A DNA stretch of 64,000 bases from contig CAXXFV010000004.1 of assembly GCA_963674595.2 (NCBI GenBank), positions 192,001 to 256,000 of the forward strand. The letters are read 5' to 3'. The notes beneath the pieces were generated by a model. The model saw nothing but the letters and a program-made list of their open reading frames with translations. It did no database searches and was not told the origin of the DNA. Numbering within the stretch: the stretch's first letter is position 1; every line of letters starts with the position of its first letter. The translations under genes were made by a program, and so were the position numbers. The stretch is from a bacterium (GTDB taxonomy: Bacteria > Zhuqueibacterota > Zhuqueibacteria > Residuimicrobiales > Krinioviventaceae). Positions 20,110 to 63,851 of the stretch are shown piece after piece.

Positions 20110-20178
20110 TATCTTTTTATAAAAGAATTAAATGTGATATAAAGCACATTCATCTACTATTTCAATTTGTATTTTAAT

Positions 20179-34751: not shown

Positions 34752-34950
34752 GATAATTCCTCCCAAATATAAAAGGCAATCAAATGAAACAGATGTTTAT
34801 CTGTTCAATATGATTAATTTAAAGATCCCTGGATGCAAAATTTATAAAGTCAAACTGGACAGGTGAATCTCCCAACACGCTGTAATTATATAAAAACGTA
34901 TAAAGAAAATAAAAAAAAAGCAACAAAAAATTAATATTTTTAAAAATATT

Positions 34951-39351: not shown

Positions 39352-39420
39352 ATCCTGGCTCCATGTATACAATTTTTAAAAATATCACGATATAGTCAAA
39401 TAAACACTATTAATACAATA

Positions 39421-46617: not shown

Positions 46618-46686
46618 TTTTTTCTTACAACTTTAATTTTGAATGGAATAATAAAGATTTGTAACCCAAAGTCCCCCCGTTTTCCG

Positions 46687-47360
46687 CTATGAATAATTAA
46701 CAGAAAAAATTTGTCGTTTCTTTTTTGAATCCAGATCTATTTTTTTTAATATCTTACGTAAACCAAACCATCCTATTTTCACATTTCCGTATTGTGGTGT
46801 ATTTAACATCCGGGCAATATTTAATGTACTGGAATTGGGATGAGTTGTTACAATTTTTTTAACTTTATCTTCAATAGACAAATCCGTTCTAATTGGTTGA
46901 TCGGATTGTGTTGTTTTTATCTCTTTGTCCGCAACAGGAGTTGCTGATTTGGGTTCAGTTGTATTAACTTCAACAACGTTTGTTTGTTTACTTCCATTTG
47001 ACAAAAGTCGTTCAAAGTCGCTAACAGCTTCTTCCAACGTGTCAAAGGCTTTTAAAATATAATGAAACTCGAGTAATTCAAAAACTTCATAAACTTCAGG
47101 AATCATTCGAACCAGTTTCAAGTCTCCGCCTTTTTCACGAATACCTTTAATTTCACTGATAAAAATACCCAGCCGGCACTGCTGACATAATCAACATTTC
47201 CTAAATCAATAATGATATTGTATGAACCCGCTTTTAATAAAGAGTTCAATGCATGTTCCAGCTCGGAAGAGGTAGTGGTATCAATATACCCGCCAACCTT
47301 AATAACTGAAACACTGTTCTGGCTTCCAGTTTTTTCTACAGACAACTGAATACCTTCCAT
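46687..47360 (-). CDS. STAS anti-sigma-factor antagonist with C-terminal HTH-like domain, split by a 1-nt frameshift
   Basis: GYIDTTT..DLGNVDYVSSAGW continues as GIFISEIKGIREKGGDLKLVRM..VYEVFELL if one G is added to the GGG run (plus strand ccc at 47168-47170). This joins ORFs 47118-47360 and 46687-47121. GGAG RBS. Confidence 0.85.
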
Positions 47361-47473
47361 TTTTATTAGTCTCCATTAGTTCCCCATTCTATTCCTACGC
47401 CACTCTAAAAGAATGCATTTTATATAATATTTTCATTTTCCTTGAACTTCCCCGCAACACCTAAAGTGTCATT

Positions 47474-47502
47474 AATATAGTTGTTAAACCTTAAAATGTC
47501 AA
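47474..47502 (-). promoter_or_regulatory. sigma70 promoter for STAS(-obgE-dprA)
   Basis: Minus strand TTGACA-N17-TATATT. Confidence 0.6.
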
Positions 47503-47529
47503 TAGTATTTTCTTGTCAAAACAGTAGAA

Positions 47530-47877
47530 TTATGAAAGATTAAGATATTGTTTAGCACGTTCTATGCTGTTTCTAATATCTTGTCTTTCAGGAGAAATTT
47601 TGAGAATTTGTTCCCATTGATTTATAGCTCGCCTAAAGTCTCCCTGATTGGCATGAATAACTCCTAAATTTTCATGCGCCTCGATATTTTCAAAATCCAA
47701 TTTAATTACTTTTTCATATTCTTTAGCGGCTTCGTTATATAAACGTTGTCTGTAAAGTGCATTCCCGCGCAAAACATGGGCCTGCCATTTATCCGGATAA
47801 TTTTGTATTATAGTATTTAATAGTTCCATTGCTTTTTTATAACTGCCATCAGAATACAATTTTGAGGCATCTTCCAT
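47530..47877 (-). CDS. TPR domain, probably the frameshifted C-terminus of the upstream kinase/phosphatase
   Basis: About three TPRs (AHVLRGNALY, AHENLGVIH). It overlaps the upstream ORF end and becomes in frame if one A is removed from the A6 run at 47879-47884. Confidence 0.7.
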   Translation of the reverse strand: MEDASKLYSDGSYKKAMELLNTIIQNYPDKWQAHVLRGNALYRQRLYNEAAKEYEKVIKLDFENIEAHENLGVIHANQGDFRRAINQWEQILKISPERQDIRNSIERAKQYLNLS

Positions 47878-50800
47878 CTTTTTTGTTATACATATATTCA
47901 TCTTTTTCAAGATTGACATCAAGAGGAAATTTTTCATGATCGGACATTTTCTTTTTATCTGTTAAAGCTTCTTTTAACAGCATTTCAAACTGTTCTTCAT
48001 CTTCATCATAAAAAGTATCATCCGACTCTACAAAATCCAACAATTCATCAAACGATAAACTTTTGGAATCTTCTTCAACAACAGATTCCTCATCACCTTG
48101 TTCAAACTTGAAATCGGAAATATCCCAGTTTATTTCCTCTTCAAATTCATTTTCCGAGTGGTTGTTTATTTGTTCCTTTATTTCATTTTCAAGAATTTGT
48201 TCAGAAATTGTTTCTTCTATTTCGCCGGTTGTGGAAATAACACCTTCTTCATCTATTATTTCAATAAACTCATCAAAGGAATCGGAAAAATCTTTTTCTT
48301 CGTCAAACAACAAAGAACTTTCTTCATCTATAAAATCTATATCCTCAACCGGTTCACCTTCAAATTCATCCTTTTCTTCTTTCTTTTCAGGTTCATCAAG
48401 ACCACCACCGGCATTTAAAGCATCAATAAAATCAAGCTCTTCTTTTTCCGATTGGGTTTGTAAATGATCGGTGTCGGAATATTCAAGATCCCCTATTTCT
48501 TCTTCCTTTTCAGCTTCACTTTCCGGTTCGGTTTCATCTCCGGCAAAGTCAAAAATTTCCAGGTCAGAGAAATCATCGGCTTCCAGTTCAAGGATAGCAT
48601 CATCAGTTTCTGTGTCGGGTTCCGGTTCTATCGATGCTTTTTCGTCTTGTTTAACTTTATCTCTTTCTTCATCAAAAGGAGCTTCAAAAAATTCAGATTC
48701 AGACACATCAATTACTGATTCGTGTTCAGATAACAGTATATCTGTATCCTGGTCAACAATCATATCATCTTCATCATGGACAAAATCAAAATCCATTGAA
48801 TCATCTACAGATGACAGTTCATCATCTTGATTTTCGTGAATATCATCTTCTTTTACATCTTTAACTAATTCTTGTTGTTCATCAGATTCATCACGATCTT
48901 GAACTCTATCCGGCTGCTCAGGCCCGCTTTCCTGCTGACGGACGGTTACATTTTTTCTTTTATCAAATAAATCAACAAGAGGGGTCAGCAATAAAGAGTC
49001 CGGTTCTAAATCCAAAAGCTCCAGGGGGGACTTGAATTCCTGAATTACCTGGGCAACCTCTTCTGTTTCAACCGGCTTTGTTGTAATCTCAGCGTCTAAT
49101 TCAATATCCTTAGATTTTTTATCCTGTTTCGGAAGTTCTTCAGATTCAAACTGTTTCAAATCTTCTTCTTCAGGCAGCGAATAATTTGCTTTTTGTAAAA
49201 TGACTTTGCCGTCAATGGTCAACATGGGTGTTCCGGGCGGCTTAATCCGGCGTTTTTTACCACCTCTGGCAATAAAAGCTTTCCTCAATTCTTTAGTGTT
49301 TAGCCTGGACCGAACAAGTTCTTCATAAATTTTAGCAGCGCTGATGATAGAAAAACTATAACGTTCTGTATTTAATTCTTCACTGATCCTTTTTGCGCCA
49401 TAGTCCGGGAACCGTCGGATAATGTCATAAATTTTTGTTTTTTCTTCAATACTGAGATGGCGAGCTTCAATTTGTTCTTCTTCGTTCTCCAGGGTAAACT
49501 GATCAAGACCTTCTTTTTCAAAACTGGCTTTATACTTGTTATAGGCATAAGTCGTGATGCCGACCGATTCACAGGCCTCTTTGATACTTTTTCCTTCGGA
49601 AACGAGATTAAAAACTTTTTTAGCCCGTTTTAGCTCTACTTTTTCAGCAGATGACTTTTCTTTAATAGAAACAAGTGTAATATCATCGTTTTGTGGAAAA
49701 CCTTCGGTGAAAGCTACAATTTCCCGTTGGAGTTTTTCAACAAACTCACCGGCGGTCAAATGTCCAAATCTTCGTACAACATTCAAAAAACGTTCTTCAG
49801 CAAACAATTGCCGTTTGGCATTCATTGCTTCTGTAATGCCGTCCGTATATATTATTAAAATATCATCTTCAGCTAAAGAGACAGTTCCGGACTCGATGGA
49901 GTTACGAAACAGGTGCTTATCCGGCAAAGAAATACCTATGGGGAAGCCTCGGGGATTTAAATAATAGGTATTATTCGTACTGGGTCGAAACAGAATCATC
50001 GGATTGTGGCCGGCGCTGGCAAAATTTAAGCGGCGACGTTTAGAATCGATAATGACATAAAAAAGGGTCACAAACATGCCCTTTTTCATGTCATTAACGA
50101 CAAAATCGTTTACGCGCGCTAATACTTCTGCAGCATCTTTAATTCCACGTGCTTCTGTTCGTAATGCAGTACGAATCATGGTCATAACAAGTGAACCGGG
50201 AACACCCTTTCCGGAGACGTCGGCTACTACTATACCCAGAGTATCGCGGTCTACTTCTACAAAATCAAAATAATCACCACCTACCTCTTTTGCGGCTGCA
50301 TAATAGGATGAAATGTCATAACCTTCAATATCAGGGAACTCACTCGGCAAGAGCGTTTGCTGAATTTCCTGTGCAACCTGCATTTCTTTTTGCAGACGTT
50401 CCTGTTCCGCCAGGTTGAGCTGCGATGCTTTAAGCTGTTGCGTAATATCGCTAAAAGCCTGGGCAATTTCACCAACTTCGGTTGATGAATCAATATCCAT
50501 TTCTTCAGCGACGCCGGGTTTTCCAAGTTCTTTAACCCACTCCTGAAGACGGCGAAAAGGATTCATTACAATGTAAATCAATAAAAAGAGTCCTGCGACT
50601 CCTATGACCCAAACGAACAATGCCAGACTAAGATTATTTTGCCTGGCTTTAGAAACATCAGAGTAAATTTTGTCTCCATCAATGAACAGGTGGGCCCTGG
50701 ACATTATATGGTCCTGTTCGTCCACAACGGGATAGACAATATCCACGACTTTTTTTCCGTCAGGCTGCCGAAATTCAAAAACATTTTTTTGAATTTCCTT

Positions 50801-51646
50801 AACATTATCGGGAAATTTAAAAGGCTCTAATATTTCTCCTTCATCAGCCCGGGCGATAATCGTGTTGCTGTTATCAACAACAAAGGCATTATATAAAATA
50901 TCCCGATGTTCGGACATTTTTAAAGTAGAAATAGGCTTGTAAGCGCTGGATAATACATCCCACTCCTGACTGCCCGATTCAATAAGCTGCTGCCGTCGTT
51001 CAGGGTCAAAACCCTGAAAGCTTGTTGCAACTTCAGTGGCAAGAACAGAGCAAGCCTGCCGTCCCCTGTCCAGATAATCTTTCAGGACAATATCATCATC
51101 CCTAAAAAATAAAAAGAAATACCCTATTATTATCAATACAGTGTAAATGGACAGGGAGATAAGCCAATAACGTGCTTTTAGAGTTAATGGAATGGTTGGA
51201 ACCGCCAGCCTTCGCTTTGTAAGAGGCTCCCTGTTTTTAACCATCCATAATTCATTTCCCTCTTCTGTCTTTCGGTAATCTATGGAATCCAAAAGGCGGC
51301 GCATAATAAAAATACCCAAACCGCCTTTTTTACCAATTTCGACATAACGCTGCAGGTCTGGATCACCAACCTGGCGCGGATCAAAATATTTTCCCTGGTC
51401 GATAAGAACGATAGTAATACTGTTCTTCTTTAACAAGGCACGAATGGTTATACTGCCTTCCCAATCACGATAAGCATGCTTGATAATATTGGTAGCTGCT
51501 TCATCTATAGATAACTTGAAAGCATTTACAATTCGTTCGGAAAAACCATGTCTTCTACCCACCTTTGTAACAAAATCTCGAAGTTCTCCCAAATACTCAA
51601 TTTTTGCCGGTACTTTTAATTGTTCTTTTACAATATTCCGAAACAA
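47849..51646 (-). CDS. membrane protein fusing RsbW-like Ser kinase + periplasmic sensor + HAMP-like linker + SpoIIE/RsbU PP2C phosphatase + HTH + acidic tail
   Basis: HATPase (DEAATNIIKHAY, DQGKYFDP, GGLGIFIM), two TMs, PP2C (GGDYFD, ADVSGKG, SAGHNP, YTDGITEA, DDIT), an HTH region and a roughly 400-aa D/E-rich region. Confidence 0.88.
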   Translation of the reverse strand: MFRNIVKEQLKVPAKIEYLGELRDFVTKVGRRHGFSERIVNAFKLSIDEAATNIIKHAYRDWEGSITIRALLKKNSITIVLIDQGKYFDPRQVGDPDLQRYVEIGKKGGLGIFIMRRLLDSIDYRKTEEGNELWMVKNREPLTKRRLAVPTIPLTLKARYWLISLSIYTVLIIIGYFFLFFRDDDIVLKDYLDRGRQACSVLATEVATSFQGFDPERRQQLIESGSQEWDVLSSAYKPISTLKMSEHRDILYNAFVVDNSNTIIARADEGEILEPFKFPDNVKEIQKNVFEFRQPDGKKVVDIVYPVVDEQDHIMSRAHLFIDGDKIYSDVSKARQNNLSLALFVWVIGVAGLFLLIYIVMNPFRRLQEWVKELGKPGVAEEMDIDSSTEVGEIAQAFSDITQQLKASQLNLAEQERLQKEMQVAQEIQQTLLPSEFPDIEGYDISSYYAAAKEVGGDYFDFVEVDRDTLGIVVADVSGKGVPGSLVMTMIRTALRTEARGIKDAAEVLARVNDFVVNDMKKGMFVTLFYVIIDSKRRRLNFASAGHNPMILFRPSTNNTYYLNPRGFPIGISLPDKHLFRNSIESGTVSLAEDDILIIYTDGITEAMNAKRQLFAEERFLNVVRRFGHLTAGEFVEKLQREIVAFTEGFPQNDDITLVSIKEKSSAEKVELKRAKKVFNLVSEGKSIKEACESVGITTYAYNKYKASFEKEGLDQFTLENEEEQIEARHLSIEEKTKIYDIIRRFPDYGAKRISEELNTERYSFSIISAAKIYEELVRSRLNTKELRKAFIARGGKKRRIKPPGTPMLTIDGKVILQKANYSLPEEEDLKQFESEELPKQDKKSKDIELDAEITTKPVETEEVAQVIQEFKSPLELLDLEPDSLLLTPLVDLFDKRKNVTVRQQESGPEQPDRVQDRDESDEQQELVKDVKEDDIHENQDDELSSVDDSMDFDFVHDEDDMIVDQDTDILLSEHESVIDVSESEFFEAPFDEERDKVKQDEKASIEPEPDTETDDAILELEADDFSDLEIFDFAGDETEPESEAEKEEEIGDLEYSDTDHLQTQSEKEELDFIDALNAGGGLDEPEKKEEKDEFEGEPVEDIDFIDEESSLLFDEEKDFSDSFDEFIEIIDEEGVISTTGEIEETISEQILENEIKEQINNHSENEFEEEINWDISDFKFEQGDEESVVEEDSKSLSFDELLDFVESDDTFYDEDEEQFEMLLKEALTDKKKMSDHEKFPLDVNLEKDEYMYNKKDGRCLKIVF

Positions 51647-51668
51647 CGAATGTAACCTCTATTATTTT

Positions 51669-53678
51669 TTAATTTGTCTTTTGTTGGCGTAACTTTTCAA
51701 CAGCAGCATCCAATGCGCGTAAAATAGATATATTGTTTGGTTGTAAATCTAATGCTTTTTGATAAAAATCCAAAGCAGTTTTAAAATCACCTTTTGTATA
51801 AGCCATAACACCTTTTGTATAAAGGTCTTTAACTTCGGGGGTCATTTTCATTTGTCGTGCTTCTGCACGTTGTTTTGTTGCTTTATATTTTTTCTGTAAT
51901 TCTTTATTATTCGGATCGCTTTTTAAAGCGTCTTCATACAAAGCGGCAGCTTCTTTCCAGTTTTTATCACGTTCATAAATAGCCGCACGTCTTACTTTAT
52001 CTTCATTGTTTAACCTTAATTCCAGTCTGTTTAACCGATTGGCGATATAAGATTCCACTTGTTTATTTCCACGGGCGAGGCGCCGTGCTCGGTTATAATA
52101 ATTTACAGCTTCATATCGTTGACCACGTTCTTCAAATTTTTTCGCATTTTCAAGTAATTCTTTTAATTTTTGTTTCAAATCTTCGGTTATTTTATCGCGA
52201 AGTTCTTTAACAATTTCACTGTTCGGTTCAACTTCCAATGCCCGTTCACATTCAAGCAAGGCATCCGGGTACTCTTCATCTGCAAAATAACCCATTGCCT
52301 TGTTATAATGCTCTTCAACAAGCTGTTGCTGGCGCCTTCTGGCCGCCGCTTCCTGATCACGTTTTAACAATTCCAGGTTTTCTTCTTCCTGCTGTTTTTT
52401 GATCGCCATATTAATGCGGCTTAAGAGGTCCCTTGCGTCGGCAAGTTCAGGATCATCACCGGATTCATCATAGGTAAGGACTTTGTTAATGGTCGTAAAT
52501 GCGCGCGCATAATCTTTACTCTCAAAAAATTGATTTGCCCGTGCCATTCCGCTGACTATGGCATTTTGTCTTTCAAGCTGTTTCTGCCGGTAAACCTCTT
52601 CCTGAATGCGTTGTATTTCTTTTTCACGAATTTCCGCCAAACGCTGCTCCCGATCTTTACCTATATTCATAACAAAAGATAACCGGTGGCTGCTTCCCAA
52701 AAGAGAATCCCAACCATTCCAATATGAATAATCGAGTTCAAAACCGACAAATTTTAAACCAAAACCATAGGTCGGCATCGCGCTTTTAGTGTCGGTAATG
52801 TCGGGTCGCATATCATAGCCCAGCCTGAGCATAAAGTTTTGGTTAAAATCATATTCTACACCCATGTGATATTGGGTTGGGATATTATAATTAAAATTAT
52901 TTGAAAATTGTCGTTCATTAACATCCATCTCAAAAGCAAAAGTAAGATAGTTTTTTGGATTGCTCATAACAACAGTTTTTGACAATCCAAACCTGTAATT
53001 TCTCGGTGTTGTTTCGCGGTCTTCTATGGCCCGAATACTTCTTTGAATAAAATTCTGGATATTAAGACCGATTTTTACATTGCCTAACACTCCTGAATTA
53101 AAAGGCGACAGTAATATGCCGACATCCGTACCAAATCCGGATTCGGTAATATTGCTGACATTTAATGAATTATCCGCATACCCCGGAAGATCAACACGTT
53201 CCAATTTAAATGTTGCACCCAATGACATCCAGTCAAGCATTTGGTAACCATAACCAAATAAAAACAATGTCCGGCTGTAATTTGTTGATCCCAACTTTGT
53301 AGCATCATCATCCCGAACCGTTATATCACCTGTGGATAACCTGAGAATACCTACAGACATGGTTCCCATTGTCAATGTTGGGTAGGCATAGGAAAAATAA
53401 TTATATTGGGTTCCGGCAGGCAAATTTGAATAATAGAAACCCAGTCCCATTTGAGGAATTTGGTCCAATGCAGCCGGGTTCCAGTATAGCGCAAAAGGAT
53501 CGTTGGCAACAGAAACATAAGCGCCTCCCATAGCCATAGCCCTGGCGCCGACCGGAGAATCAAAAATATCCGTCATTCCTCCCCACTGGCTGCTTGAGTT
53601 TTGTGCAAAACACACCAGCGGAAAAAATAGAAATGCGAGTTTAAAATATTTTAATATTTTTGTTTTCAAATCAGTCAT
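51669..53678 (-). CDS. PorV/PorQ-like outer-membrane barrel with C-terminal TPRs
   Basis: Signal peptide; VGARAMAMGGAYVSVAND..ALYWNPAAL; beta-strands ending DYS...SHRLS; then a coiled coil and multiple TPRs. Confidence 0.85.
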   Translation of the reverse strand: MTDLKTKILKYFKLAFLFFPLVCFAQNSSSQWGGMTDIFDSPVGARAMAMGGAYVSVANDPFALYWNPAALDQIPQMGLGFYYSNLPAGTQYNYFSYAYPTLTMGTMSVGILRLSTGDITVRDDDATKLGSTNYSRTLFLFGYGYQMLDWMSLGATFKLERVDLPGYADNSLNVSNITESGFGTDVGILLSPFNSGVLGNVKIGLNIQNFIQRSIRAIEDRETTPRNYRFGLSKTVVMSNPKNYLTFAFEMDVNERQFSNNFNYNIPTQYHMGVEYDFNQNFMLRLGYDMRPDITDTKSAMPTYGFGLKFVGFELDYSYWNGWDSLLGSSHRLSFVMNIGKDREQRLAEIREKEIQRIQEEVYRQKQLERQNAIVSGMARANQFFESKDYARAFTTINKVLTYDESGDDPELADARDLLSRINMAIKKQQEEENLELLKRDQEAAARRRQQQLVEEHYNKAMGYFADEEYPDALLECERALEVEPNSEIVKELRDKITEDLKQKLKELLENAKKFEERGQRYEAVNYYNRARRLARGNKQVESYIANRLNRLELRLNNEDKVRRAAIYERDKNWKEAAALYEDALKSDPNNKELQKKYKATKQRAEARQMKMTPEVKDLYTKGVMAYTKGDFKTALDFYQKALDLQPNNISILRALDAAVEKLRQQKTN

Positions 53679-53690
53679 AAAATTAATTAA

Positions 53691-56600
53691 TTATTTAACA
53701 ACAGCAATTTTTGTAATGGCTGTTTCTGTTTCTGTTATTATATAAGCCAGGTATACACCATTCATTACCCTGAAATTCTGGCCATTAGTTCCGTCCCAAA
53801 TGACATCACCTTGATGAACACCTTCACTTGTTTGTAACTGGTCTGAACTTTTTGAAAAACTCCAGGACCGTACCAATTCTCCGGTTAAAGTAAAAATCTT
53901 GATTTCAACATCACTCGGTTGACTGAGATAATATAAAAATTTTGTTTCCGTTCTGTCCGGACGTCCAAACGGGTTTGGGTAATTACAAAATGTTTTTTCC
54001 AGTTGTTCTTCAACAACAACAGATAATTTTGAAGAGATACCTAAATCTAATACTTGATTATAATTAGAATCAACAATTGTCAACGGCAGTCCGGATACAT
54101 CAGAGGCCCGGATATTTTCAGGACTGTTGATATATAATTGAAATCCATAGGCACTGCCAACATTTCCAATATCTGCAACAATATCAATAGAATCCGGTTC
54201 TGTACCTTTCAGAGTATCTGGTAAATTCGATTTTAAATCCAACAGGATAAAGTCTGTACCAAAATTCGTCTGCCACGCAAAAACATGTGCCGGATCGGAA
54301 TGTCGAACGGCAGCGACGCGTGAAAAAACGGATGCCGGTGATACCGGTTCACCTTTTTTATCTTTAACAAATATTTTCAAGCTGTCAATAATGGAAACAC
54401 TGCTCGAAGCCGCATCCTTGTTTCTGGCTTTAAAACCCATCATTTTAACATTTTGACTGCCTTTAGAAACAACAGATTTTTCCTGTAAAACATAGGGTTC
54501 GATAACTACCATACCTGCTTCGGAGGATACCAATATTTTTGCCAAATCTTTGTCAATAGAGGCTTGCTGTTTTGTATAGGTGTCATTTGGTGCTTCCAGC
54601 AAATAAAACTTAATCGTATCGGGAACATCTGTTTTATATTTAGGGGCCTGAATTGTCCAGGAAATTGCATCATTTGCACCGGCAGCGGTTTTAATCGTAT
54701 CACCTTTTGTTGTAAAACCATTATCTGAAAGTTTTATTTTAACCTGATAGGAACCGATCAGGTCAGACTCTCCGATATTTGATAAATAGCTTACAACCTG
54801 AAATTCACTACCGACACGCACGGTACCGGAATCAATAAAAACATCCTGGTCCATTGAAGCTAAAAGTTCGACACCTGCTTTATTTAATGTCTGTAAAGTA
54901 AAGGTCTCAGTATCTTTAGAAATTTTAGCGTTTGTACCGGAATTTTGATCAACAGGCGCCTGAATAAAATTAAACTCAAATTTCGACAAACCCTCTGGTT
55001 TGGCAGCGGGAGCCTGTAGTTCCCACTCGGGAAAGATATTATTCTTAACATCCGCAACGGTAACAGAAAGTCGTCTCTCACCTGACAGAGAAAAACCAAC
55101 AGGTAACGGAGCTAATTCGACAACAAAACTGTCCGTATCTGCAAAGCCGGCATCACCCGAATTGGTAATAGATGTTGTAAGGGTAAAATACTGGCTTGTG
55201 GAAACGCGATCTACAAGTCCTTCAGGAGCCGATATTTTTGGAGTTATAGAAACAACAGCCTGGTTTTCAACGGTGATGTCCATAGCATCAGAAAAAATTT
55301 CTAAATCTGCTCCAGACCGAAGGTCCTTTGCATTGACTTTAATTTGTACATTCCCATCGCCGGTCACACCTGGTGCCGTGACTTTCCAGGTAACTCTTTG
55401 GTCGTCTCCTACAGCGATATCCTGGTTTACCGGATTTACAGCGTCGAATTCTTCCGAAGAAAATATAATCTGCGCACTTATATCTTCAGCAACCTGACCG
55501 GAACTTATTTCGGCTGTAATGTAAAACGTTTGATTCGTGGACAATTTATTGTCTCTTGCACCGACAGGATTACTGACCCACAAAGAATCAACACTGATAT
55601 ATCCGCCTTCCTGTGTATAAACGATTAATTCCCGAGTATTGGTTTCAACTTCCACACTTTTATTGGAATTTTCATCTTTTGGAACGCTGTCAGAGTCAAT
55701 TTCTACCTTAACTCGTTTATTTTGCAATACTTCATTCGGAGCAGTAATAGTCCAGCCAATATTTTCATTTATATCAAAATCTTTAGTAGCAGATTCTCCG
55801 TCAGCCAAAGATAATCCACTATCCAATAGATCTAGTTTAAGCTTTCCTTTTGCTGTTTCAGGATCAAGACCGGCAGAGCCAAGGTTGGTAACCCGGGCCT
55901 GTAATGTTGCTGTTTGACCTGTTGATAGATAGGTTGCCCCGTCTGTCATTGTTGTCAGAGGTATTACAGACAATGCTTCCAAATTTAAAATTGCTTTAGT
56001 AACAACTTTTTTAATGGTTATACTTGCTTTAGAAACTTTTTCTTTTCCGTTTTCTTCACCTTTTAATTCAAGTTGAAGGGTATGATTATCTGAAACTTCG
56101 GCTGATGGAGCAAAGATCGTCCATGACAATGTAGCAGAATCCTGATCAACAGTTTTTTCCAGACTATCATCGTCTGCTAACGAATAACGCCGGCTGCCGG
56201 CAATTGCCGGTAATAAAAGTTTGACTTTTCGATTGGTCAAATTCTTTGACGTTTTGACCTTGGCTTCCAATTGAAGGGTCTGTTCCGTAGAAAGCACACT
56301 GTCTTTGGCGCCTTCGGGTTCAATAATTGTAAAATAATCTATTAGCAGAATTGAGGTTTTGGTCTCTACCAGAAAACTATCCTCTTCCACCTCTATCAGG
56401 GCATCTTCAAGTGTGTTCAAATCTTTAGGTGTTTCAGTAATCGCAGCCTTGACCGCTAACGGAGCGGTATCTGTATCAGGGGATTCTAATTCGTAATTAA
56501 CTTCTTTTGATACATCATCTCCTGTAAGACTGAAATTTGCCGTCTGAGGATCCGTTATATAATCTATTCCATCAAAAATTCGATAACCTTCAGGCGGCGT

Positions 56601-59600
56601 AAAGACAAAGTTTCCATCCTTAACCTGAGATGTTCCTAATCTTTCAACTTTGACTGTAACCTTAAATTTGCTCGACGCTGTTACAACCGAATCTGCTGAA
56701 TTTGCCGGGAACACAGAAATATTAACCCGTGCCGGTTCCTGAATTCGAATCCGTGCCTGGTCATCATCCGCATCAGGTTCCTGAATCTGGGCTATTTCAT
56801 CACTGCCGATAGCTTTTGCAGATAATATTTTCGCCGTATAAAGTTCCGAAAGTTCTTCATTAACACCCAAATCATTTACAGCCGTAACATCAAACACAGC
56901 ATAGGCCGTTGAATCTTTAGCAATACGCGGGATTATTACGGTATCCGGTTTAACCATAGACAAAACAGTATTTGATGTGACCTCTCTGGAATCCAATTCA
57001 ACCTTAACACTGTCAACGCCCAAAACCTGCCCGGCTTTAACTTTAACCTGAACCTGAAATGCCTGACCTCGATTAACCAGACCGATTCCATTGTTATCAA
57101 ATGTGTTACAAACTATTTCCGTGTCTTTAACCTGCACCCTGGCATTAACACTTCTCACAATAATATCGGCCGATGCATTATCCGTCAAAACCGGGCTGTC
57201 CGTCGGCAGGTTTTTATCTCTGGCCTGCAATGCTACATCAATTTTCCCTGTTCCGGCCAGCTTTCCATTGTTACGGACAATATAAACCAACGAATCTATA
57301 GCGCCGCCGGGTAAAACCAATCCTACCTGGTTTTTTAATTTTTGTGGTGGAGCGATGTCATAGTCCGCGTCAACAACATCGTTTATAGAAAAAACAATAT
57401 TCTCAGCATTAATATTGACAAATTCCAAATCAGAACTTCCTGTATTAGTAACCTGGACAAAAATATTCCAGTTTACCAACTCATCTCCGGCATTGATAAT
57501 GTCCTCTTGCGGACTGACAGATAAAATTTCAAAAACTGCCGGGTTTTCCACAATGGCCTGAGTTATGTTATTTCCCTCAGGATCTAAAATTGTTACACCC
57601 TGGTTATTATGAACACCCAGGGCATTATTAATATTTGCTGTAAACTCTACATTCCCTGATTCACTACCGGCAGTTATTCGAAAACTCAGTTCCTGTTCCT
57701 GGTTGCCTTGAATGTTTTGAGCAAAAGTAATAGGTGATGTTAATACTTTACCCAATGTTTCGCTACTTGTGCCTAAAGATACCTGAACATCTTTGGCTGC
57801 TTCTGAACCTGTATTTTTGACTTTAACACTTACATCAAAACTCTGTCCTGTATTAACAGTCCCTTCTGAACTAGGGGCAAGATTTTCGACAGCTATAATT
57901 TGCAGCCTGGCAGGTTCATGAATTTTAATAATGGAAAAATTATCATTTGATGACGAAATATCAGCAATTGACCCGTCTCGGGCAACAGCCCTGATAATGT
58001 GTGCCTCAATTTTCTCACCGGTCAAATTCTCAGCATCAGCAGCGGTCAGGTTAAATGTCAGCGTATCAGTTTGACCAACGCCCAATCTGTGACTTTCTTT
58101 TATACCATTTATAATAGCCGAACTTGGCGCTGTTAATTGAACTTTAACGGTATCCAATTCCTGAGCACCAACATTTTGGACCATCACCTTTATAATTAAA
58201 TCCTGACTAATATTTACATAACCCGTATCATTAACAACCACGGGCAAATCAGGATCAACAAAAGTTTTCACAAGCATTACATTAGAGCGGTTAGTTGCCT
58301 GCACGGATGTTTGTTTGGCCTGGGTAGCGATAGTACGGTTTGCGTCATTCAGGTCCGTGGCCGAAACTTTTCCGGTTATTGTAATTTCGCCGCCGGCTGG
58401 TCCGTTTGAAGTAACATCAAAAATTAATGTATCGCGTTCGCCGCCCTTTAACACCAAGTCATCTTCGGTTACAGCCCGTGGACTAAATACATATCCTTCT
58501 CCCGGATTAAACGTAATGTCGTCCTTGGTCGGCTGTTTCAGTTTTAATGAACCACCCTGCTCTGTGTTATTTTCAACATCGAGAAAAATTTGCCAGTCGA
58601 CACTTGTCCCGGGGATAACGGTATCAACAGATGTATATACCTGGTGTAAAACAAGGTTTCCGGGTTCCTGAACATGAACCGTAATTGATGAATCCAGGGG
58701 CGTTAAAATTTTTGCCGACTGTTTTGTATTACGTGCAATAGCTGTTTCAACTTTGGCAACGAGATTATCTTTAAATCCGGGTAAATCAGGTGCATTAACT
58801 CGTACACCAGGTTCCGTCCATACTGATTCTCCCGGACCTAATGATTCAATATTAAAAGTCTGGCCTTCCGGGGAAAATTGAAATACATCCGATTCCGAAT
58901 AAAACCGAATCGTGGTTTGCTGAACAGTATCACCTGATTCCGGATTGCCCGGATTTGTCACAAGGGCTTTAACATAAAATGATTGTTCGGAATTTACAAA
59001 AGAATCTGATGGAACATCTATAATAACCTGGTCCAGTCGTATAGCCGCCGAATCCTGAATTGCCAAACTAACCTGGCCATTTCCCGGAGCTGTTGAAAAA
59101 CTGTATATCAAATTCCTGTTTACTTCGGTCATTCGGACTGTGGCGTTGACTGTTGTTATACCGACTATTGATTCTTCCGCACTTGTTAACTGAACATTAT
59201 AGATCAAACTATCCCGGCTTCCGCCTGAAAGTATTTTACTATTACTTCCATCAAAAAATCCGGGTTTGGTAAAATTAAAATATTCATCACCAATTCCAAA
59301 ACTCAGTTTGGTATTTTCTGAATCCAATAATAAATCTGCTTCTCCTGCATTTTCGAGATGCAAAGTCACTTTCCAGGGCGTAGTCTGTCCGCGAGTGATA
59401 CTCGACTGGCTCAAATGCAGCCGCGTAAATTCCAGTTCAGCAGGGTTTTGGACCTGAATTTCATCGCCTCTCGGTAGTGTACTTTCCGGATGATCATCTG
59501 TATTGACCAAATCGGTCATAAATACAGATCCATTAAGGACCGTCTGTTGGTTCGGTGTTTCCGCAGATACATTTGTAACCGCAATACGAATGGTGTCGGT

Positions 59601-62600
59601 TTGTCCGGCTGATAAAATATTACTTTCACTAACAAAAGAATTCGGAATATCAAAAGTAAAATATTCGGACACGTCGTTGGTGCCCTGAGAAAAAGTCAAT
59701 TCCGCCGTATCATATTGCAAATTATTGGAACCATTATTGACCAGAATAAAATCAATTTTCCATTGATTGGTTTGGCCAATTGTAACACTGGGTGTTGAAG
59801 CAACAATATGATTAAGTGAAAATTTTCCCGGATCACTGACCGTTAATGAAGTTGTTAATTCTATATTATCAGAAAAAGCATTATTGTTTTCAGTACCACT
59901 TATTATTAATTGAGGTAAATACTGGCCCTTTTGAAATGCAAGCGGTATTAATGTCCTTAAAAAGTTTATTGTAACCGTTTGTCCTCCCGGCACACGGTTA
60001 TCATAAGCCGGATCAAGAGCAGCACTGAAAAAATGAAGACCATCGTTAAATTGAAATTTCGTTTGGCTTGTGTTTAAAATTAAATCAGAGCCGCCGATGT
60101 TGCTAACATCAACAGTAAAACCAACCTGTGCACCGGCAGAAACAGTCGTTGGCTGAAGACTGTTTTCAACATATTCGATATTTGCCGGTTCCTGAACGGT
60201 AATAATTTTAGTTGACGATGTAAATTGTTCAACAAAAAATTGATTTCGGTTAGGTTCACGAACACGAACCTGAGCCTGTCCAAACAGGTCACCCAGCACG
60301 TTTCCAATGGTTGTTGCTTTAAAAATAAGGCTGTCGCTTTCACCGGCCTTTAAAATAATGGAATTGGATGCAGATAGTTTTTCCGGCAATGTAAAAGTAA
60401 AATCTTGCTGATGTACGCCTTCCTGCAATAACCTTACCCAGGTATTTTCAGCATTTGTTAAATCGATTTCAACATCAGCGCCGCCGTCATTGGCTACATG
60501 GACCGTAACCCACCAATTTGGTTCAACCCCAAAAGTAACAAATTCCGGAACGGCCTTAATATTTGTTATTTTAAAATCAGATGCTTCCTGTATGGACACA
60601 ACAGCTTTCATAGCTTCAGATGCGGTGATCTCTTTTGCGGCCTGAGTGTTTACATTTTTATAATGAATATTTGCACCTATTAAAACATCACCGACCTGGC
60701 TGCCCGTTTCGGTAACGGAAAAAACAAGCGTGTCTGTTTCATTTGACTTTAACTGTGAACCTAAATTTTGAAGCGCATCCGAACAATTATGAACAAATGT
60801 ATCATTAGAAAACTGCAGGACGCTTGTATCAAAATCCATTTCAATGGTGCTGCCGCCCTGGTTTTTCAACACAACGGCAACAGTCCAGGGGTGCGTAGCA
60901 TCACCAGCAGTGGCTGTTGTTTGTGAAGGAATAATGTCAAGAATGCGCAGGTCATCTGCTGTTTGGACTTCGAATCCTCCAAAAACATCACTGATATTGG
61001 AATTGGTATAAATCTGGTTTGTCGCCTCAACCCGCCCATAAATATCGATAGGGCCTGTTGTTGTTCCGGTCTCATTAACAGTAAATTGTAAATGTCTCGT
61101 TTCGCCGGCAGGAATGGTTAATCCGCCCTCTACCAGAGCTGTAGGGGTTGAAATATTATATTCAGATTCCGTATAATCGGTACCACCACGTTTAAAACGA
61201 ATATATGTCTTGTCTGTGTCTATGGATAACGTCAGATCAATTCCGCCGGTGTTATGAATCCCCATTAAAACAGTCCAGTCAGCTAGTTGCCCGGCAGTAA
61301 CGGTAGATTGAGAAGCGGTAAGCTCTGTAAACTCTAATGATGAGCCTTCGACCACCTGAAATAAATTCGGGATTTGTGTAACAACTTGTTTTTCAATTCC
61401 GGAATTGGCATCACTGTAATTAATTGTCTGACGAACTGTTATATTGCCAAGGTCCGCTTGATCAGTAACTGTAATATAATAGGTCAACGCCTGAACAGCG
61501 CCGCCATCAACAGTTTCAGGATTTCCATCATATATAACAACAGAAAACTGTGAAGTAACATCTTCCAGATTATTAATAAACTGAAATTGACTCGATATCA
61601 AATCGGCTGGAGCCGAGTTTGTAAAATTTAAATTATTTGAAACCTGAGTTTGCAGCTCAATCCCCCGGCTTCCCTGGGCCAGTTGATTATCTTCAATCGA
61701 AATACTGTTAATTGCCAAATTTGCTGCTTGCTGGACAATCCATGCAGGATTTGGGTTTGTAAAGATCGTTGAAATCGAACTTGTACCTACAAGACCATCT
61801 AATTGACCGTTTATTGTAATAACTTCCAGAGCAGCCGTAGACGCTACATCAACTAAAAATTGTAACGTTGCTATTTGATTCGCGGCAATGGATCTGGTTT
61901 CAAACGCCGGAACCTGATAATCAATATCCCGATCAACAGTTCCTGATCTAAATTGAAGGACTGCTGATGTTAATGTTATTTGTTGACTACCACTGTTCTG
62001 CACACGCATGGACACCTGAACATTTGATTGTCCCTGACTAACACGGTCGGTAGCGCTGGTTATACTCAAAATATTAAGGGCACTAACAGTTATAGAGCTG
62101 GATTGAGTGGATATCCCTAAACTCTGGTCATGAACTGTAAATGTTTGTGTACCCGGTGTATTAAAAACAAAATTATTTCCGCCAAATACCATAGGGTGAC
62201 TTGTAAAATTGGTAGAGCCTGGTAATGTAGCAGACCCATCAGTACTGGTAAAATAAATTAACCCGCTGTAATTTGTTTTTTCATTGCCATAAGCATCTAT
62301 AGCACGAACAATAACATCTGTATTAAAAGAATTGCCTGCGGCCACAGATGTCGGATAATTTGAAAGTTCAAATTTGGCCAGACTTCCGGGAAGGACTGTA
62401 ATTGTACCGGTGGTCTTTGTTACACCCGTGGTTTGGTCCACTCCCCGCAGGGTGACCGATTCCACCCGATAAAGGGTCTGCTCTGCTTCTCCTGTTCCAT
62501 TAACCACAGGAATTTTTGTAAAACGCGGGGCATCACCATTGGGAGAACTACTACCGCCAATGGCCGCACTGATAACAATATTACCGGAAACCGGATTTAA

Positions 62601-63851
62601 GTACTGATCGACAGCATTGGTAACCTGCAATGTAAAAGGTACACCCGCTGTCTGAGTTGAATTCATAACAAGGGCAAAATCGTAAAGAGGGCCTGCCGAC
62701 ACCTGTATAGCACTGCTGGTTTTGGCGATTGTACCGTTCGTTACCGTAATTGTTTGTGTACCGGCAGAGCGGAATTGAAAATTTGAACCGGAAATTGATT
62801 TAATTCCGGCGTCATTTACCGGGTCAAAAGCAACAGGATTTTGGTCATCATAGGTCAATTCGGCACTGTTATCGGTTGACTCAAAATAAATAGTGCCGGC
62901 GTAATTTGTCTTGATATTTTTCCAGGCATCATAAGCGGTAACGGTTACATTACCATCAAGCCCTGAACCGGCATTTGTTGCTGTGTCATCAAGATCTATA
63001 TTATAAGAAGCAAGGGTTGAAGGTTGAATAGAGAACAATCCGGTTGTTCGTGAAAGTCCATTCACCGTTCCCCTTAGCTGAATATTTGTCTCTGCTTTGT
63101 ATAGCCGGACCGTTGCCTCACCTTCACCATTTTTTACAATGACATTGGTTAAAAAAGGCTGTGTAAAACCATCCGGAGCCGTATGTGCCTGACCATCTGA
63201 AAAAGAGAGCTGCACAATACCATCGGTAGGAGAATTGGCATCATCTAGAGCATTTTCAACACGAACGGTAAAATCACTGCCCGCATTAAAAGCCAAATTA
63301 GATACATCAATATCAAAACTGTTGATAGGGTTACCAATATCAAAAGGATCTGACCAGCCCTGATCAATAACAATGTCACTGTGGTCCAATGTTTCAACAA
63401 AAACAACAGCGTCCTGGACAACATCCGGAGGATTAATAATTGAAGTGATTGTTATTGTAAATGTTTCACCTGGCTGCACGGTTGAACCGGTCCCATCACG
63501 TTTACATACAATTTTTTGCAACCCATCTTCACTTACAAATTCGGGGTCATCAAAATTACCACTAAAAATAGTTTGACTGTCACTATAAACCGCGATAACG
63601 GGTGCCAGATCAAAATCGTAAATACTTAGATCAAAACCAATTTTTATACTTCCCTTACTCGGAATAGCGGTTCCGGCAGGATCTGTGGTGATTGTAAAAG
63701 AATAAGTCGATTGTTCACCAACAACGGCATAACGTGGATTAACAACAACTTGCTGCAAAGCGCCTGCAAGTGCGCTGACTGACCACAAAAATAAAAATGG
63801 AAAAATATATTTAAAATACTTGATTCGCATTGTAATTGAACAAAATCTCAT
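53691..63851 (-). CDS. giant (3386 aa) secreted Ig-like-repeat surface protein with FlgD-Ig/T9SS-like C-terminal domain
   Basis: Signal peptide. N-terminal AG..F...A.DAYGN..NY.G.IYF.STD repeats, then roughly 20 CARDB-like units (xQEPA.L.I...V..GQ..W.V...N.G). CNYPNPF...WDGTN..NGVYL C-terminus. Start overlaps the upstream stop (ATGA). Confidence 0.88.
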   Translation of the reverse strand: MRFCSITMRIKYFKYIFPFLFLWSVSALAGALQQVVVNPRYAVVGEQSTYSFTITTDPAGTAIPSKGSIKIGFDLSIYDFDLAPVIAVYSDSQTIFSGNFDDPEFVSEDGLQKIVCKRDGTGSTVQPGETFTITITSIINPPDVVQDAVVFVETLDHSDIVIDQGWSDPFDIGNPINSFDIDVSNLAFNAGSDFTVRVENALDDANSPTDGIVQLSFSDGQAHTAPDGFTQPFLTNVIVKNGEGEATVRLYKAETNIQLRGTVNGLSRTTGLFSIQPSTLASYNIDLDDTATNAGSGLDGNVTVTAYDAWKNIKTNYAGTIYFESTDNSAELTYDDQNPVAFDPVNDAGIKSISGSNFQFRSAGTQTITVTNGTIAKTSSAIQVSAGPLYDFALVMNSTQTAGVPFTLQVTNAVDQYLNPVSGNIVISAAIGGSSSPNGDAPRFTKIPVVNGTGEAEQTLYRVESVTLRGVDQTTGVTKTTGTITVLPGSLAKFELSNYPTSVAAGNSFNTDVIVRAIDAYGNEKTNYSGLIYFTSTDGSATLPGSTNFTSHPMVFGGNNFVFNTPGTQTFTVHDQSLGISTQSSSITVSALNILSITSATDRVSQGQSNVQVSMRVQNSGSQQITLTSAVLQFRSGTVDRDIDYQVPAFETRSIAANQIATLQFLVDVASTAALEVITINGQLDGLVGTSSISTIFTNPNPAWIVQQAANLAINSISIEDNQLAQGSRGIELQTQVSNNLNFTNSAPADLISSQFQFINNLEDVTSQFSVVIYDGNPETVDGGAVQALTYYITVTDQADLGNITVRQTINYSDANSGIEKQVVTQIPNLFQVVEGSSLEFTELTASQSTVTAGQLADWTVLMGIHNTGGIDLTLSIDTDKTYIRFKRGGTDYTESEYNISTPTALVEGGLTIPAGETRHLQFTVNETGTTTGPIDIYGRVEATNQIYTNSNISDVFGGFEVQTADDLRILDIIPSQTTATAGDATHPWTVAVVLKNQGGSTIEMDFDTSVLQFSNDTFVHNCSDALQNLGSQLKSNETDTLVFSVTETGSQVGDVLIGANIHYKNVNTQAAKEITASEAMKAVVSIQEASDFKITNIKAVPEFVTFGVEPNWWVTVHVANDGGADVEIDLTNAENTWVRLLQEGVHQQDFTFTLPEKLSASNSIILKAGESDSLIFKATTIGNVLGDLFGQAQVRVREPNRNQFFVEQFTSSTKIITVQEPANIEYVENSLQPTTVSAGAQVGFTVDVSNIGGSDLILNTSQTKFQFNDGLHFFSAALDPAYDNRVPGGQTVTINFLRTLIPLAFQKGQYLPQLIISGTENNNAFSDNIELTTSLTVSDPGKFSLNHIVASTPSVTIGQTNQWKIDFILVNNGSNNLQYDTAELTFSQGTNDVSEYFTFDIPNSFVSESNILSAGQTDTIRIAVTNVSAETPNQQTVLNGSVFMTDLVNTDDHPESTLPRGDEIQVQNPAELEFTRLHLSQSSITRGQTTPWKVTLHLENAGEADLLLDSENTKLSFGIGDEYFNFTKPGFFDGSNSKILSGGSRDSLIYNVQLTSAEESIVGITTVNATVRMTEVNRNLIYSFSTAPGNGQVSLAIQDSAAIRLDQVIIDVPSDSFVNSEQSFYVKALVTNPGNPESGDTVQQTTIRFYSESDVFQFSPEGQTFNIESLGPGESVWTEPGVRVNAPDLPGFKDNLVAKVETAIARNTKQSAKILTPLDSSITVHVQEPGNLVLHQVYTSVDTVIPGTSVDWQIFLDVENNTEQGGSLKLKQPTKDDITFNPGEGYVFSPRAVTEDDLVLKGGERDTLIFDVTSNGPAGGEITITGKVSATDLNDANRTIATQAKQTSVQATNRSNVMLVKTFVDPDLPVVVNDTGYVNISQDLIIKVMVQNVGAQELDTVKVQLTAPSSAIINGIKESHRLGVGQTDTLTFNLTAADAENLTGEKIEAHIIRAVARDGSIADISSSNDNFSIIKIHEPARLQIIAVENLAPSSEGTVNTGQSFDVSVKVKNTGSEAAKDVQVSLGTSSETLGKVLTSPITFAQNIQGNQEQELSFRITAGSESGNVEFTANINNALGVHNNQGVTILDPEGNNITQAIVENPAVFEILSVSPQEDIINAGDELVNWNIFVQVTNTGSSDLEFVNINAENIVFSINDVVDADYDIAPPQKLKNQVGLVLPGGAIDSLVYIVRNNGKLAGTGKIDVALQARDKNLPTDSPVLTDNASADIIVRSVNARVQVKDTEIVCNTFDNNGIGLVNRGQAFQVQVKVKAGQVLGVDSVKVELDSREVTSNTVLSMVKPDTVIIPRIAKDSTAYAVFDVTAVNDLGVNEELSELYTAKILSAKAIGSDEIAQIQEPDADDDQARIRIQEPARVNISVFPANSADSVVTASSKFKVTVKVERLGTSQVKDGNFVFTPPEGYRIFDGIDYITDPQTANFSLTGDDVSKEVNYELESPDTDTAPLAVKAAITETPKDLNTLEDALIEVEEDSFLVETKTSILLIDYFTIIEPEGAKDSVLSTEQTLQLEAKVKTSKNLTNRKVKLLLPAIAGSRRYSLADDDSLEKTVDQDSATLSWTIFAPSAEVSDNHTLQLELKGEENGKEKVSKASITIKKVVTKAILNLEALSVIPLTTMTDGATYLSTGQTATLQARVTNLGSAGLDPETAKGKLKLDLLDSGLSLADGESATKDFDINENIGWTITAPNEVLQNKRVKVEIDSDSVPKDENSNKSVEVETNTRELIVYTQEGGYISVDSLWVSNPVGARDNKLSTNQTFYITAEISSGQVAEDISAQIIFSSEEFDAVNPVNQDIAVGDDQRVTWKVTAPGVTGDGNVQIKVNAKDLRSGADLEIFSDAMDITVENQAVVSITPKISAPEGLVDRVSTSQYFTLTTSITNSGDAGFADTDSFVVELAPLPVGFSLSGERRLSVTVADVKNNIFPEWELQAPAAKPEGLSKFEFNFIQAPVDQNSGTNAKISKDTETFTLQTLNKAGVELLASMDQDVFIDSGTVRVGSEFQVVSYLSNIGESDLIGSYQVKIKLSDNGFTTKGDTIKTAAGANDAISWTIQAPKYKTDVPDTIKFYLLEAPNDTYTKQQASIDKDLAKILVSSEAGMVVIEPYVLQEKSVVSKGSQNVKMMGFKARNKDAASSSVSIIDSLKIFVKDKKGEPVSPASVFSRVAAVRHSDPAHVFAWQTNFGTDFILLDLKSNLPDTLKGTEPDSIDIVADIGNVGSAYGFQLYINSPENIRASDVSGLPLTIVDSNYNQVLDLGISSKLSVVVEEQLEKTFCNYPNPFGRPDRTETKFLYYLSQPSDVEIKIFTLTGELVRSWSFSKSSDQLQTSEGVHQGDVIWDGTNGQNFRVMNGVYLAYIITETETAITKIAVVK

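Follow-up and report, generated by a model that had tools for sequence, protein, structure and literature searches.

Partner switches are known as circuits of the cytoplasm, and the cargo/barrel pairs of the type IX secretion system (T9SS) are known as devices for secretion and anchoring. In this study, we analysed a window of 64,000 nucleotides (contig CAXXFV010000004.1 of assembly GCA_963674595.2, positions 192,001 to 256,000) from a bacterium of the KSB1 phylum, in which parts of both kinds are encoded in one cassette: a giant surface protein with a T9SS sorting domain, a PorV/PorQ-family outer-membrane barrel extended by a coiled-coil and tetratricopeptide repeat (TPR) arm, an inner-membrane sensor that combines an RsbW-type serine kinase with a PP2C phosphatase, and a STAS protein with a helix–turn–helix (HTH)-like tail. 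The cassette is real and strongly conserved, and its parts are of known kinds. We infer that it is best read as a partner switch of the SypE/SypA type that works without a sigma factor and is linked to a T9SS cargo and the barrel anchoring it. That the cargo, the barrel with its arm, the kinase/phosphatase sensor and the STAS output form a phylum-wide envelope module, providing a route from the surface to the cytoplasm, is a proposal to which we give slightly less than an even chance.

On the cytoplasmic side, SypE belongs to the response regulators: it is soluble, and a central receiver (REC) domain separates its kinase from its phosphatase. HsbR of Pseudomonas aeruginosa is a fused PP2C phosphatase and RsbW-type kinase that acts on the STAS protein HsbA; it is soluble, its receiver domain is fed by a phosphorelay, and it has no link to an outer-membrane protein. 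As set out in a review (PMC8256260), SypE of Vibrio fischeri is a dual serine kinase/phosphatase and SypA its STAS-only substrate, which in its unphosphorylated form is the output and, with no sigma factor involved, controls a cell-surface product; the same review presents BtrU/BtrW/BtrV of Bordetella as a partner switch that governs type III secretion and not a sigma factor. Our locus resembles SypE/SypA in that one protein with an RsbW-type kinase and a PP2C phosphatase would act on a STAS protein with no sigma factor taking part, and it shares the combination of a fused phosphatase/kinase and a STAS substrate with HsbR/HsbA. However, the sensor described here lacks the receiver domain of SypE; its input part is a periplasmic domain held by two transmembrane (TM) segments, followed by HAMP, and it has gained an HTH region, an acidic tract and a TPR domain. 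Unlike SypA, the STAS protein carries an HTH-like tail, and its gene sits beside those of a T9SS cargo and a PorV-like barrel, not beside a polysaccharide locus. The sensor differs from HsbR in spanning the membrane and in being encoded beside an outer-membrane barrel, whereas BtrU, BtrW and BtrV are three separate soluble proteins that serve another secretion system and have no outer-membrane partner.

On the outer side, PorV and PorQ belong to the T9SS attachment complex, and SprB/SprF of Flavobacterium johnsoniae are a cargo–barrel pair, in which SprF, a member of the PorP family, serves type B C-terminal domains (CTDs). The barrel of our locus is encoded beside a giant T9SS cargo and thereby resembles dedicated barrels for one cognate cargo; however, unlike SprF it belongs to the PorV/PorQ family, and the cargo has a type A CTD. 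From PorV and PorQ themselves it differs by scoring below their equivalog cut-offs and by a coiled-coil/TPR extension of about 330 amino acids (aa), which is absent from 17 ordinary-length paralogs above the family cut-off. In the FecA/FecR/FecI system, a periplasmic extension of the barrel contacts an inner-membrane regulator, which in turn switches a cytoplasmic regulator of transcription. Here the likeness is one of logic only, with no homologous part; the cytoplasmic step proposed for our locus is reversible serine phosphorylation, and Pfam and NCBIfam scans of the six proteins of the locus gave no domain of a TonB-dependent transducer, a FecR-type anti-sigma factor or an extracytoplasmic function sigma factor. 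The literature searched, including that on KSB1 together with type IX secretion or on PorV together with TPRs and an anti-sigma antagonist, held no description of the cassette, and the main text of the KSB1 phylum paper (PMC11683472) makes no mention of secretion, T9SS, anti-sigma, motility or terms beginning with adhes-.

Gene models and domain architecture

The genes of the cassette lie on the minus strand, as do all their features given below. The giant surface protein is encoded at 53691..63851 (3386 aa), the barrel with its arm at 51669..53678 (669 aa) and the sensor, as the frame is annotated, at 47849..51646 (1265 aa), with spacers of 12 nt between giant and barrel genes and 22 nt between barrel and sensor genes. 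These coordinates and gaps agree with the earlier note, which had described a tightly spaced run of genes; however, that note left out an open reading frame (ORF) of 135 aa with TPRs (47530..47937), which belongs to the C terminus of the sensor, and the ATGA overlap that had been taken as part of the run does not indicate operon coupling. The 4 nt overlap joins an ORF of 80 aa, which codes for the N-terminal half of a STAS domain with the VSSAG motif (47118..47360), to a second ORF of 144 aa (46687..47121), and it is most likely an assembly frameshift within one STAS gene. When the DNA after VSSAGW is read in the shifted frame, it codes for a normal second half of a STAS domain. In relatives the distance from the STAS start codon to the second part is 240 nt, against 239 in the window, and one gene codes for 212–239 aa; their sensor ORF likewise extends through the TPR domain (1111–1665 aa). 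Across loci, the two STAS halves lie 33 nt apart in 65 of 66 cases and 24 nt apart in the remaining one, and the TPR domain is inside the sensor ORF in 66 of 67, the single exception being an alignment overhang of 3 nt.

Both breaks are at homopolymers. At 47167 one G is missing (GGGG read as GGG), and the Logan contigs of four out of four public sequencing runs have one extra C (plus strand) behind that base; at 47879 one extra base in an A-run breaks the sensor frame, and all four have one base fewer. Over 46600–48100 the contigs thus differ from the window at both indels, both changes restore the frames, and beyond them the contigs differ at only 0–4 single bases. Their word depth is low (2–5.8), the assembly itself may derive from one of these runs, and such contigs conceal minor variants. 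In addition, an intact protein of 1371 aa in a protein collection (P0001) is 100% identical over residues 1–700 and carries the TPR families. Because of the frames of the relatives, the Logan contigs of four runs and this intact protein, we conclude that 47530..51646 in truth codes for a sensor of about 1371 aa and 46687..47360 for a protein of about 224 aa with a STAS domain and a tail, and both gene calls need correction. We considered whether the two breaks might reflect programmed frameshifting or phase variation and rejected this as the main explanation, as relatives keep one frame and the contigs of all four runs are intact; rare variants are dropped by contigs, which may hide a minor frameshifted population. 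Two homopolymer indels within about 700 bases suggest that the assembly has further errors of this kind. In locus L032 (genome G009, an assembly of five contigs), the giant, barrel, sensor and STAS frames are all broken, most likely through assembly errors.

The sensor is built, in order, of an RsbW-type kinase, a TM segment, a periplasmic domain, a second TM segment, HAMP, PP2C, an HTH region, an acidic tract and a TPR domain. The kinase domain (51236..51613, residues 12–137) matches HATPase_c_2 with E 1.6e-27 (96.5 bits) and RsbW models with E 2.2e-21. In 43 aligned sensors its residues E49, N53, D83, G85 and G108–G111, which we take to represent the N-box, G1 and G2 motifs, are invariant. 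The hydropathy profile gives two membrane segments (residues 160–181 and 339–361) with a loop of about 157 aa between them, and because of this the kinase and all parts past HAMP are placed in the cytoplasm and residues 182–338 (50633..51103) in the periplasm. HAMP was found at residues 356–406, ahead of the phosphatase (E 0.0025). The SpoIIE/RsbU-type PP2C domain (49661..50248, residues 467–662) scores 168.7 bits (E 1.9e-49), with the metal-binding aspartates D458, D461, D476, D602, D654 and D655 as well as G479 invariant in the same 43 sequences. The description of an inner-membrane protein with an RsbW-type kinase and an RsbU-type phosphatase around a periplasmic domain is thus borne out. 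No Response_reg match was seen in the sensor at E <= 0.01; the two TM segments, the periplasmic domain and HAMP are there instead. Two transposase-type HTH elements with a conserved basic motif follow (49202..49609, residues 680–815), then an acidic tract of 435 aa with 36% Asp plus Glu (47852..49159), the length of which varies among relatives, and lastly the cytoplasmic TPR domain (47533..47877; TPR_2 2.2e-17), which stands in the record as the separate 135 aa ORF.

The STAS domain was recognized with E 3e-18 in an intact ortholog. It is nearly invariant throughout the phylum, and the motif VDY[VI]SSAGWGIFISEIKGIRE is invariant in 40 sequences, including S60 and S61 of SSAG, in line with the phospho-acceptor region that had been pointed out around VSSAG. 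The phospho-acceptor is presumably one of these two serines, an assignment carried over from SpoIIAA. In an AlphaFold model of the intact ortholog (predicted local distance difference test (pLDDT) 83.7), a STAS fold at residues 1–126 is followed by a disordered linker (127–152) and a four-helix tail (157–218); in the Protein Data Bank (PDB), the structures that the model resembles most are those of SpoIIAA and RsbV bound to their kinases (TM score by target 0.86). The tail of the window's protein lies at 46690..46905 and is HTH-like, with pLDDT 87 in the model and an hhalign alignment to the sensor.

The barrel (52665..53555, residues 42–338) matches the PorV/PorQ family model NF033709 with 158.1 bits (cut-off 90), and residues 341–669 (51672..52658) form the coiled-coil and TPR arm, which is predicted to be periplasmic (TPR_2 4.8e-20, TPR_1 1.7e-18); a PorV-like barrel extended by TPRs is what the earlier note had seen. 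Because the barrel is below the equivalog cut-offs for PorV (67.5 against 250 bits), PorQ (76.6 against 220) and PorV2 (65.4 against 325), and because the best PorV-family match of the genome is at another locus (C8, 313 bits), it is regarded as a specialised paralog. The arm is retained in all 42 aligned barrel orthologs. The genome has 19 PorV/PorQ-family loci above the family cut-off; long open frames were found only at the window's locus (673 aa) and one other (980 aa), and the remaining loci have 304–519 aa, apart from one weak partial match in a frame of 767 aa.

The giant protein (53691..63851) has a signal peptide, an N-terminal region of about 580 aa without any family match, 20 tandem CARDB-like beta-sandwich repeats of about 125 aa (54594..62111, residues 581–3086) and a T9SS type A C-terminal sorting domain with an internal insertion (53694..54023; NYPNPF ... 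KIAVVK; TIGR04183). Its length of 3386 aa and the NYPNPF sorting domain stand as first reported; however, the 'Ig repeats' are the 20 CARDB-like units. Self-BLAST gave no internal repeats at E 1e-3 and a hidden Markov model (HMM), iterated over 13 orthologous giants, was needed, with which the 20 domains have E values from 4.6e-11 to 1.2e-24. The only hints from Pfam were CARDB, with 21.4 bits against a cut-off of 22.7, and Transglut_C, likewise below threshold. Applied to the C-terminal 110 aa by themselves, TIGR04183 gives 29.7 bits (cut-off 23), compared with only 18.2 for the whole protein, and it is matched by 45 of 47 orthologous giant C termini. In relatives, the same position is taken by orthologs whose lengths range from 1805 to more than 4400 aa. 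A T9SS core is indicated by SprA (657 bits against a cut-off of 200) and PorU (880 against 420), the evidence covering these two and the PorV family. The 19 PorV/PorQ loci and dozens of CTD-like matches of the genome (G000) represent a large expansion of T9SS barrels, and within the window three more proteins (30968..32317, 33369..34766 and 37090..39372, minus strand) have FlgD_ig/Por_Secre_tail C termini typed as T9SS cargo, one of them a calcineurin-like phosphoesterase.

Conservation across the KSB1 phylum

With sensor residues 1–700 as the query, an ortholog (E <= 1e-80) was found in 157 of the phylum's 167 genomes, and among the 105 of high quality in 103; two positives, G158 and G162, are unpublished genomes, and leaving them out gives 155 of 165. 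The sensor is mostly single copy in these genomes, with 48–72% identity. Within the family and order to which the window belongs, all 20 loci have the giant C terminus, the PorV-TPR barrel, the sensor and its TPR domain in this sequence, and the STAS gene is present in 19 (L027 is without it). Among 80 public loci, which partly overlap the genomes of that set, the barrel gene is directly upstream of the sensor in all 68 that could be assessed and the giant C terminus is upstream in 61 of 61; the STAS gene is downstream in 66 of 68, the exceptions being L107 and L039, the latter identical in contig to L027. The other families of the phylum are represented by 14 loci, all of which have the complete core and 13 of which have STAS. 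It had been proposed that conservation of the gene order be checked in related genomes, and the core order is indeed kept across families of the KSB1 phylum (20/20, 68/68 and 14/14). The next gene after STAS in the window codes for Obg (45628..46617), and this adjacency is lost in many loci, because of which the core order reflects more than general synteny. The STAS-tail gene of L027/L039, L107 and L127 may sit elsewhere in those genomes. Outside the phylum, Atlas clusters that look like the sensor and the STAS-tail protein are labelled Calditrichota, Zixibacteria and Eisenbacteria, labels that rest on few members; many KSB1 bins are publicly recorded under other names.

The conserved cassette may have six genes. 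Past the window end, a protein of 151 aa with a signal peptide (L113:848-1303) is encoded such that its gene overlaps the start of the giant gene by 4 nt, and upstream of it is the gene for a TPR protein of 382 aa without a signal peptide (L113:1706-2854; G000:C4). By tblastn, the 151 aa gene was detected at 11 loci of the close set and at 6 of the 14 distant ones, and the 382 aa TPR gene at 10 of the 14 distant loci, one locus being not assessable. The 151 aa protein has no Pfam or NCBIfam family match; its similarity to the giant N terminus (E 0.044) is suggestive only. A RomY-like match at the N terminus of the 382 aa protein (E 0.033) was below cut-off and was not used. No Rfam family reached its gathering score in the window or in the 15 kb upstream.

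A possible route from the surface to the cytoplasm

According to the route that we propose, the giant CARDB-repeat protein would be exported by the T9SS of the genome and its CTD would be held at the surface by the adjoining dedicated barrel, the coiled-coil/TPR arm of which would reach into the periplasm and contact the periplasmic domain of the inner-membrane sensor. The cytoplasmic side of the sensor would bear both the RsbW-type serine kinase and the PP2C phosphatase; a signal passing through HAMP would shift the balance between the two activities and thereby set the phosphorylation of the conserved serine in the neighbouring STAS protein. The output of this protein may then need no sigma factor and be delivered by its HTH-like tail, perhaps with the help of the sensor's homologous HTH region. 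Cargo capture by the barrel, the contact in the cell, STAS phosphorylation, DNA binding, a regulated target and the relay of the adhesin state are steps that we infer from the arrangement and kinds of the domains.

The contact in the periplasm was modelled with sensor residues 182–338 and residues 341–669 of the barrel protein, each with its own alignment. The complex has a median ipSAE of 0.66, whereas none of the three controls exceeds 0.06; the contacts are consistent between three runs, and the pLDDT of the partner is 87. The mark of 0.66 is reached by 116 of 157 solved complexes and by 2 of 215 mismatched pairs, counts that are approximate here since own alignments were used. In the model, sensor residues 227–240 and 271–273 meet the last TPR of the arm (612–658). 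The periplasmic domain evolves fast (mean p-distance 0.80), and its pairwise distances correlate better with the distances of the arm (r 0.79, or 0.69 as partial r given PP2C) than with those of PP2C (0.55) or HTH (0.43) in the sensor itself, a correlation that may stem from similar saturation of fast-evolving parts and is drawn from related, non-independent genomes.

Besides the approximate calibration and this possible effect of saturation, several further observations weigh against the proposed route. The contact between arm and periplasmic domain, the modelling of which had been suggested in the earlier note, passed its controls, but its interface is not conserved: column entropy is higher there than in the rest (2.97 against 2.66 and 2.67 against 2.31 bits), and sensor residues ~218–231 are absent in most distant families, so that the interface is partly in a lineage-specific insertion. 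For the output, the sequence evidence for an HTH in the STAS tail is weak alone (Pfam E 0.04–0.06 in one ortholog). The tail model gave nothing in Foldseek at E <= 0.001 (all E > 1), and in VIA it reached Z values of 5 to at most 5.9 (ArgR/AhrC, NarL and sigma-54 DNA-binding domains), a range which may show merely a common helical arrangement. The STAS gene starts 169 nt past the sensor and the gap holds a promoter-like site; this site, TTGACA-17-TATATT at 47474..47502 (11 of 12 positions), is the best sigma-70-type one of the region, where such sites are not in excess (22 against 23.4 in shuffles). STAS is not adjacent to the sensor in L027/L039 (one contig), L107 and L127. Cross-talk is possible, as the genome has 8 other STAS loci and 17 places that match the 700 aa sensor query, mostly via the PP2C part. 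Finally, the fused kinase/phosphatase as such is not new, since SypE is a dual kinase/phosphatase and fused architectures occur in many phyla; in Atlas, sensors that fuse SpoIIE with HATPase_c_2 are found in several phyla and carry input domains of many kinds, and the sensor/STAS pair may be not tied to T9SS cargo as such.

An alternative for the output step only, compatible with a contact across the periplasm or with its absence, is that the HTH-like domains are docking modules and not DNA binders; the STAS tail would pair with the sensor region, and the output would go through a protein target, as proposed for SypA. We regard this as doubtful. The STAS tail and sensor residues 668–796, which include the second HTH element, are homologous (hhalign probability 96%, E 2.8e-9; BLASTP E 4e-5); the sensor's HTH region is followed by the 435 aa acidic tract, and when the tail is compared with DNA-binding domains its fold matches do not reach what the tool counts as meaningful. 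The target of SypA is unknown according to the review (PMC8256260). On the other hand, residues 680–789 of the sensor match the DNA-binding N terminus of IS481 transposases (E 1.3e-9, 38 bits against a whole-protein cut-off of 224, over the first 107 model positions only); HTH_23 (E 7.3e-4, 19.7 bits, cut-off 24.6) and HTH_32 (E 0.032, 15.2 bits, cut-off 33.7) stay below their cut-offs there. Nearly all of the top 50 VIA matches of the tail are DNA-binding winged-helix/HTH domains, and a basic motif follows the HTH-like domain in both proteins. A comparison of the STAS-tail profile with the sequences of solved structures gave chance-like matches only (RecA fusion constructs, SYK). The earlier claim that HTH-type regions are built into both sensor and STAS protein is in agreement with these IS481, HTH and hhalign matches, and from the model DNA binding by the STAS tail is plausible.

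It is also conceivable, and in our view rather unlikely, that the four proteins cooperate without a contact that spans the envelope. In that case the periplasmic domain would read a small ligand or the state of the envelope, the switch would regulate production or secretion of the giant protein and the barrel, and the arm would serve T9SS assembly or cargo handling. Such a role would suit a domain that is placed like the ligand-binding domains of sensor kinases; residues 171–419 of the sensor align to the extracytoplasmic/HAMP region of WalK (E 5.2e-9), and related fused sensors of other phyla bear Cache or PDC ligand-binding domains. It would also suit the lack of conservation in the modelled interface. 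However, the complex model beats its controls by 0.60, the arm is kept in 42 of 42 aligned barrel orthologs, and long frames are rare among the PorV-family loci of the genome, all of which speak against this alternative.

In a canonical anti-sigma circuit, the kinase would sequester a sigma factor encoded elsewhere and the STAS protein would be the anti-anti-sigma factor, as in RsbW/RsbV/SigB. The best matches of the kinase are indeed RsbW models, and the STAS model resembles SpoIIAA and RsbV; however, the kinase is tethered to the membrane, the STAS protein has a conserved output-like tail of its own, and candidates for the sigma factor are lacking where they were sought. None of the 45 window ORFs scanned has a sigma-70 family match at E <= 0.01, 0.001 or 1e-5, which bears out that no sigma factor gene is in the window, and no SigB/F/G-type sigma in the genome is above cut-off (best 123 against 234 bits). 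We consider this circuit very unlikely. That the gene order is simply inherited, and that the two signalling genes have no functional relation to the genes of cargo and barrel, is more improbable still: obg and a dprA-like gene are also kept within the order and STAS may have its own promoter, but the core order survives in all families sampled while the obg adjacency is often lost, the spacers are of only 12 and 22 nt, and the complex model passes.

Neighbouring genes and significance

Elsewhere in the window, a peroxiredoxin gene (AhpC-TSA, 32431..33042, minus strand) has an in-frame TGA (32902-32904) at the position of the peroxidatic cysteine (FTFV-TGA-ATE). The genome encodes SelB (354 bits, cut-off 242), and this gene probably codes for a selenocysteine peroxiredoxin, in which case the 140 aa ORF call is too short. 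On the plus strand, a sigma-54-dependent response regulator, an activator, is encoded at 21926..23308, after the lipid A genes lpxB and lpxK, which flank a DUF374 gene (18982..21829).

Taken further, the proposed surface-to-cytoplasm route would make the cassette a sensor of surface touch or load, in which the state of a micrometre-scale CARDB fibre (present, pulled or lost) is passed through the PorV-like anchor and the TPR arm to the kinase/phosphatase and on to a DNA-binding STAS protein, as a core trait of KSB1 and perhaps of neighbouring phyla of the FCB group. We think this extended version unlikely; if true, it would be the T9SS counterpart of cell-surface signalling, with serine phosphorylation replacing the sigma/anti-sigma pair. 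A conserved physical link between a partner switch and a T9SS cargo/barrel pair would be a new way for Gram-negative bacteria to report the state of a surface structure. The kinase, the PP2C phosphatase, the STAS-tail protein, the TPR arm and the periplasmic domain are soluble domains, which permit work in vitro without culturing the organism. The cassette is nearly universal in an uncultured phylum, and is therefore probably central to the envelope biology of KSB1.

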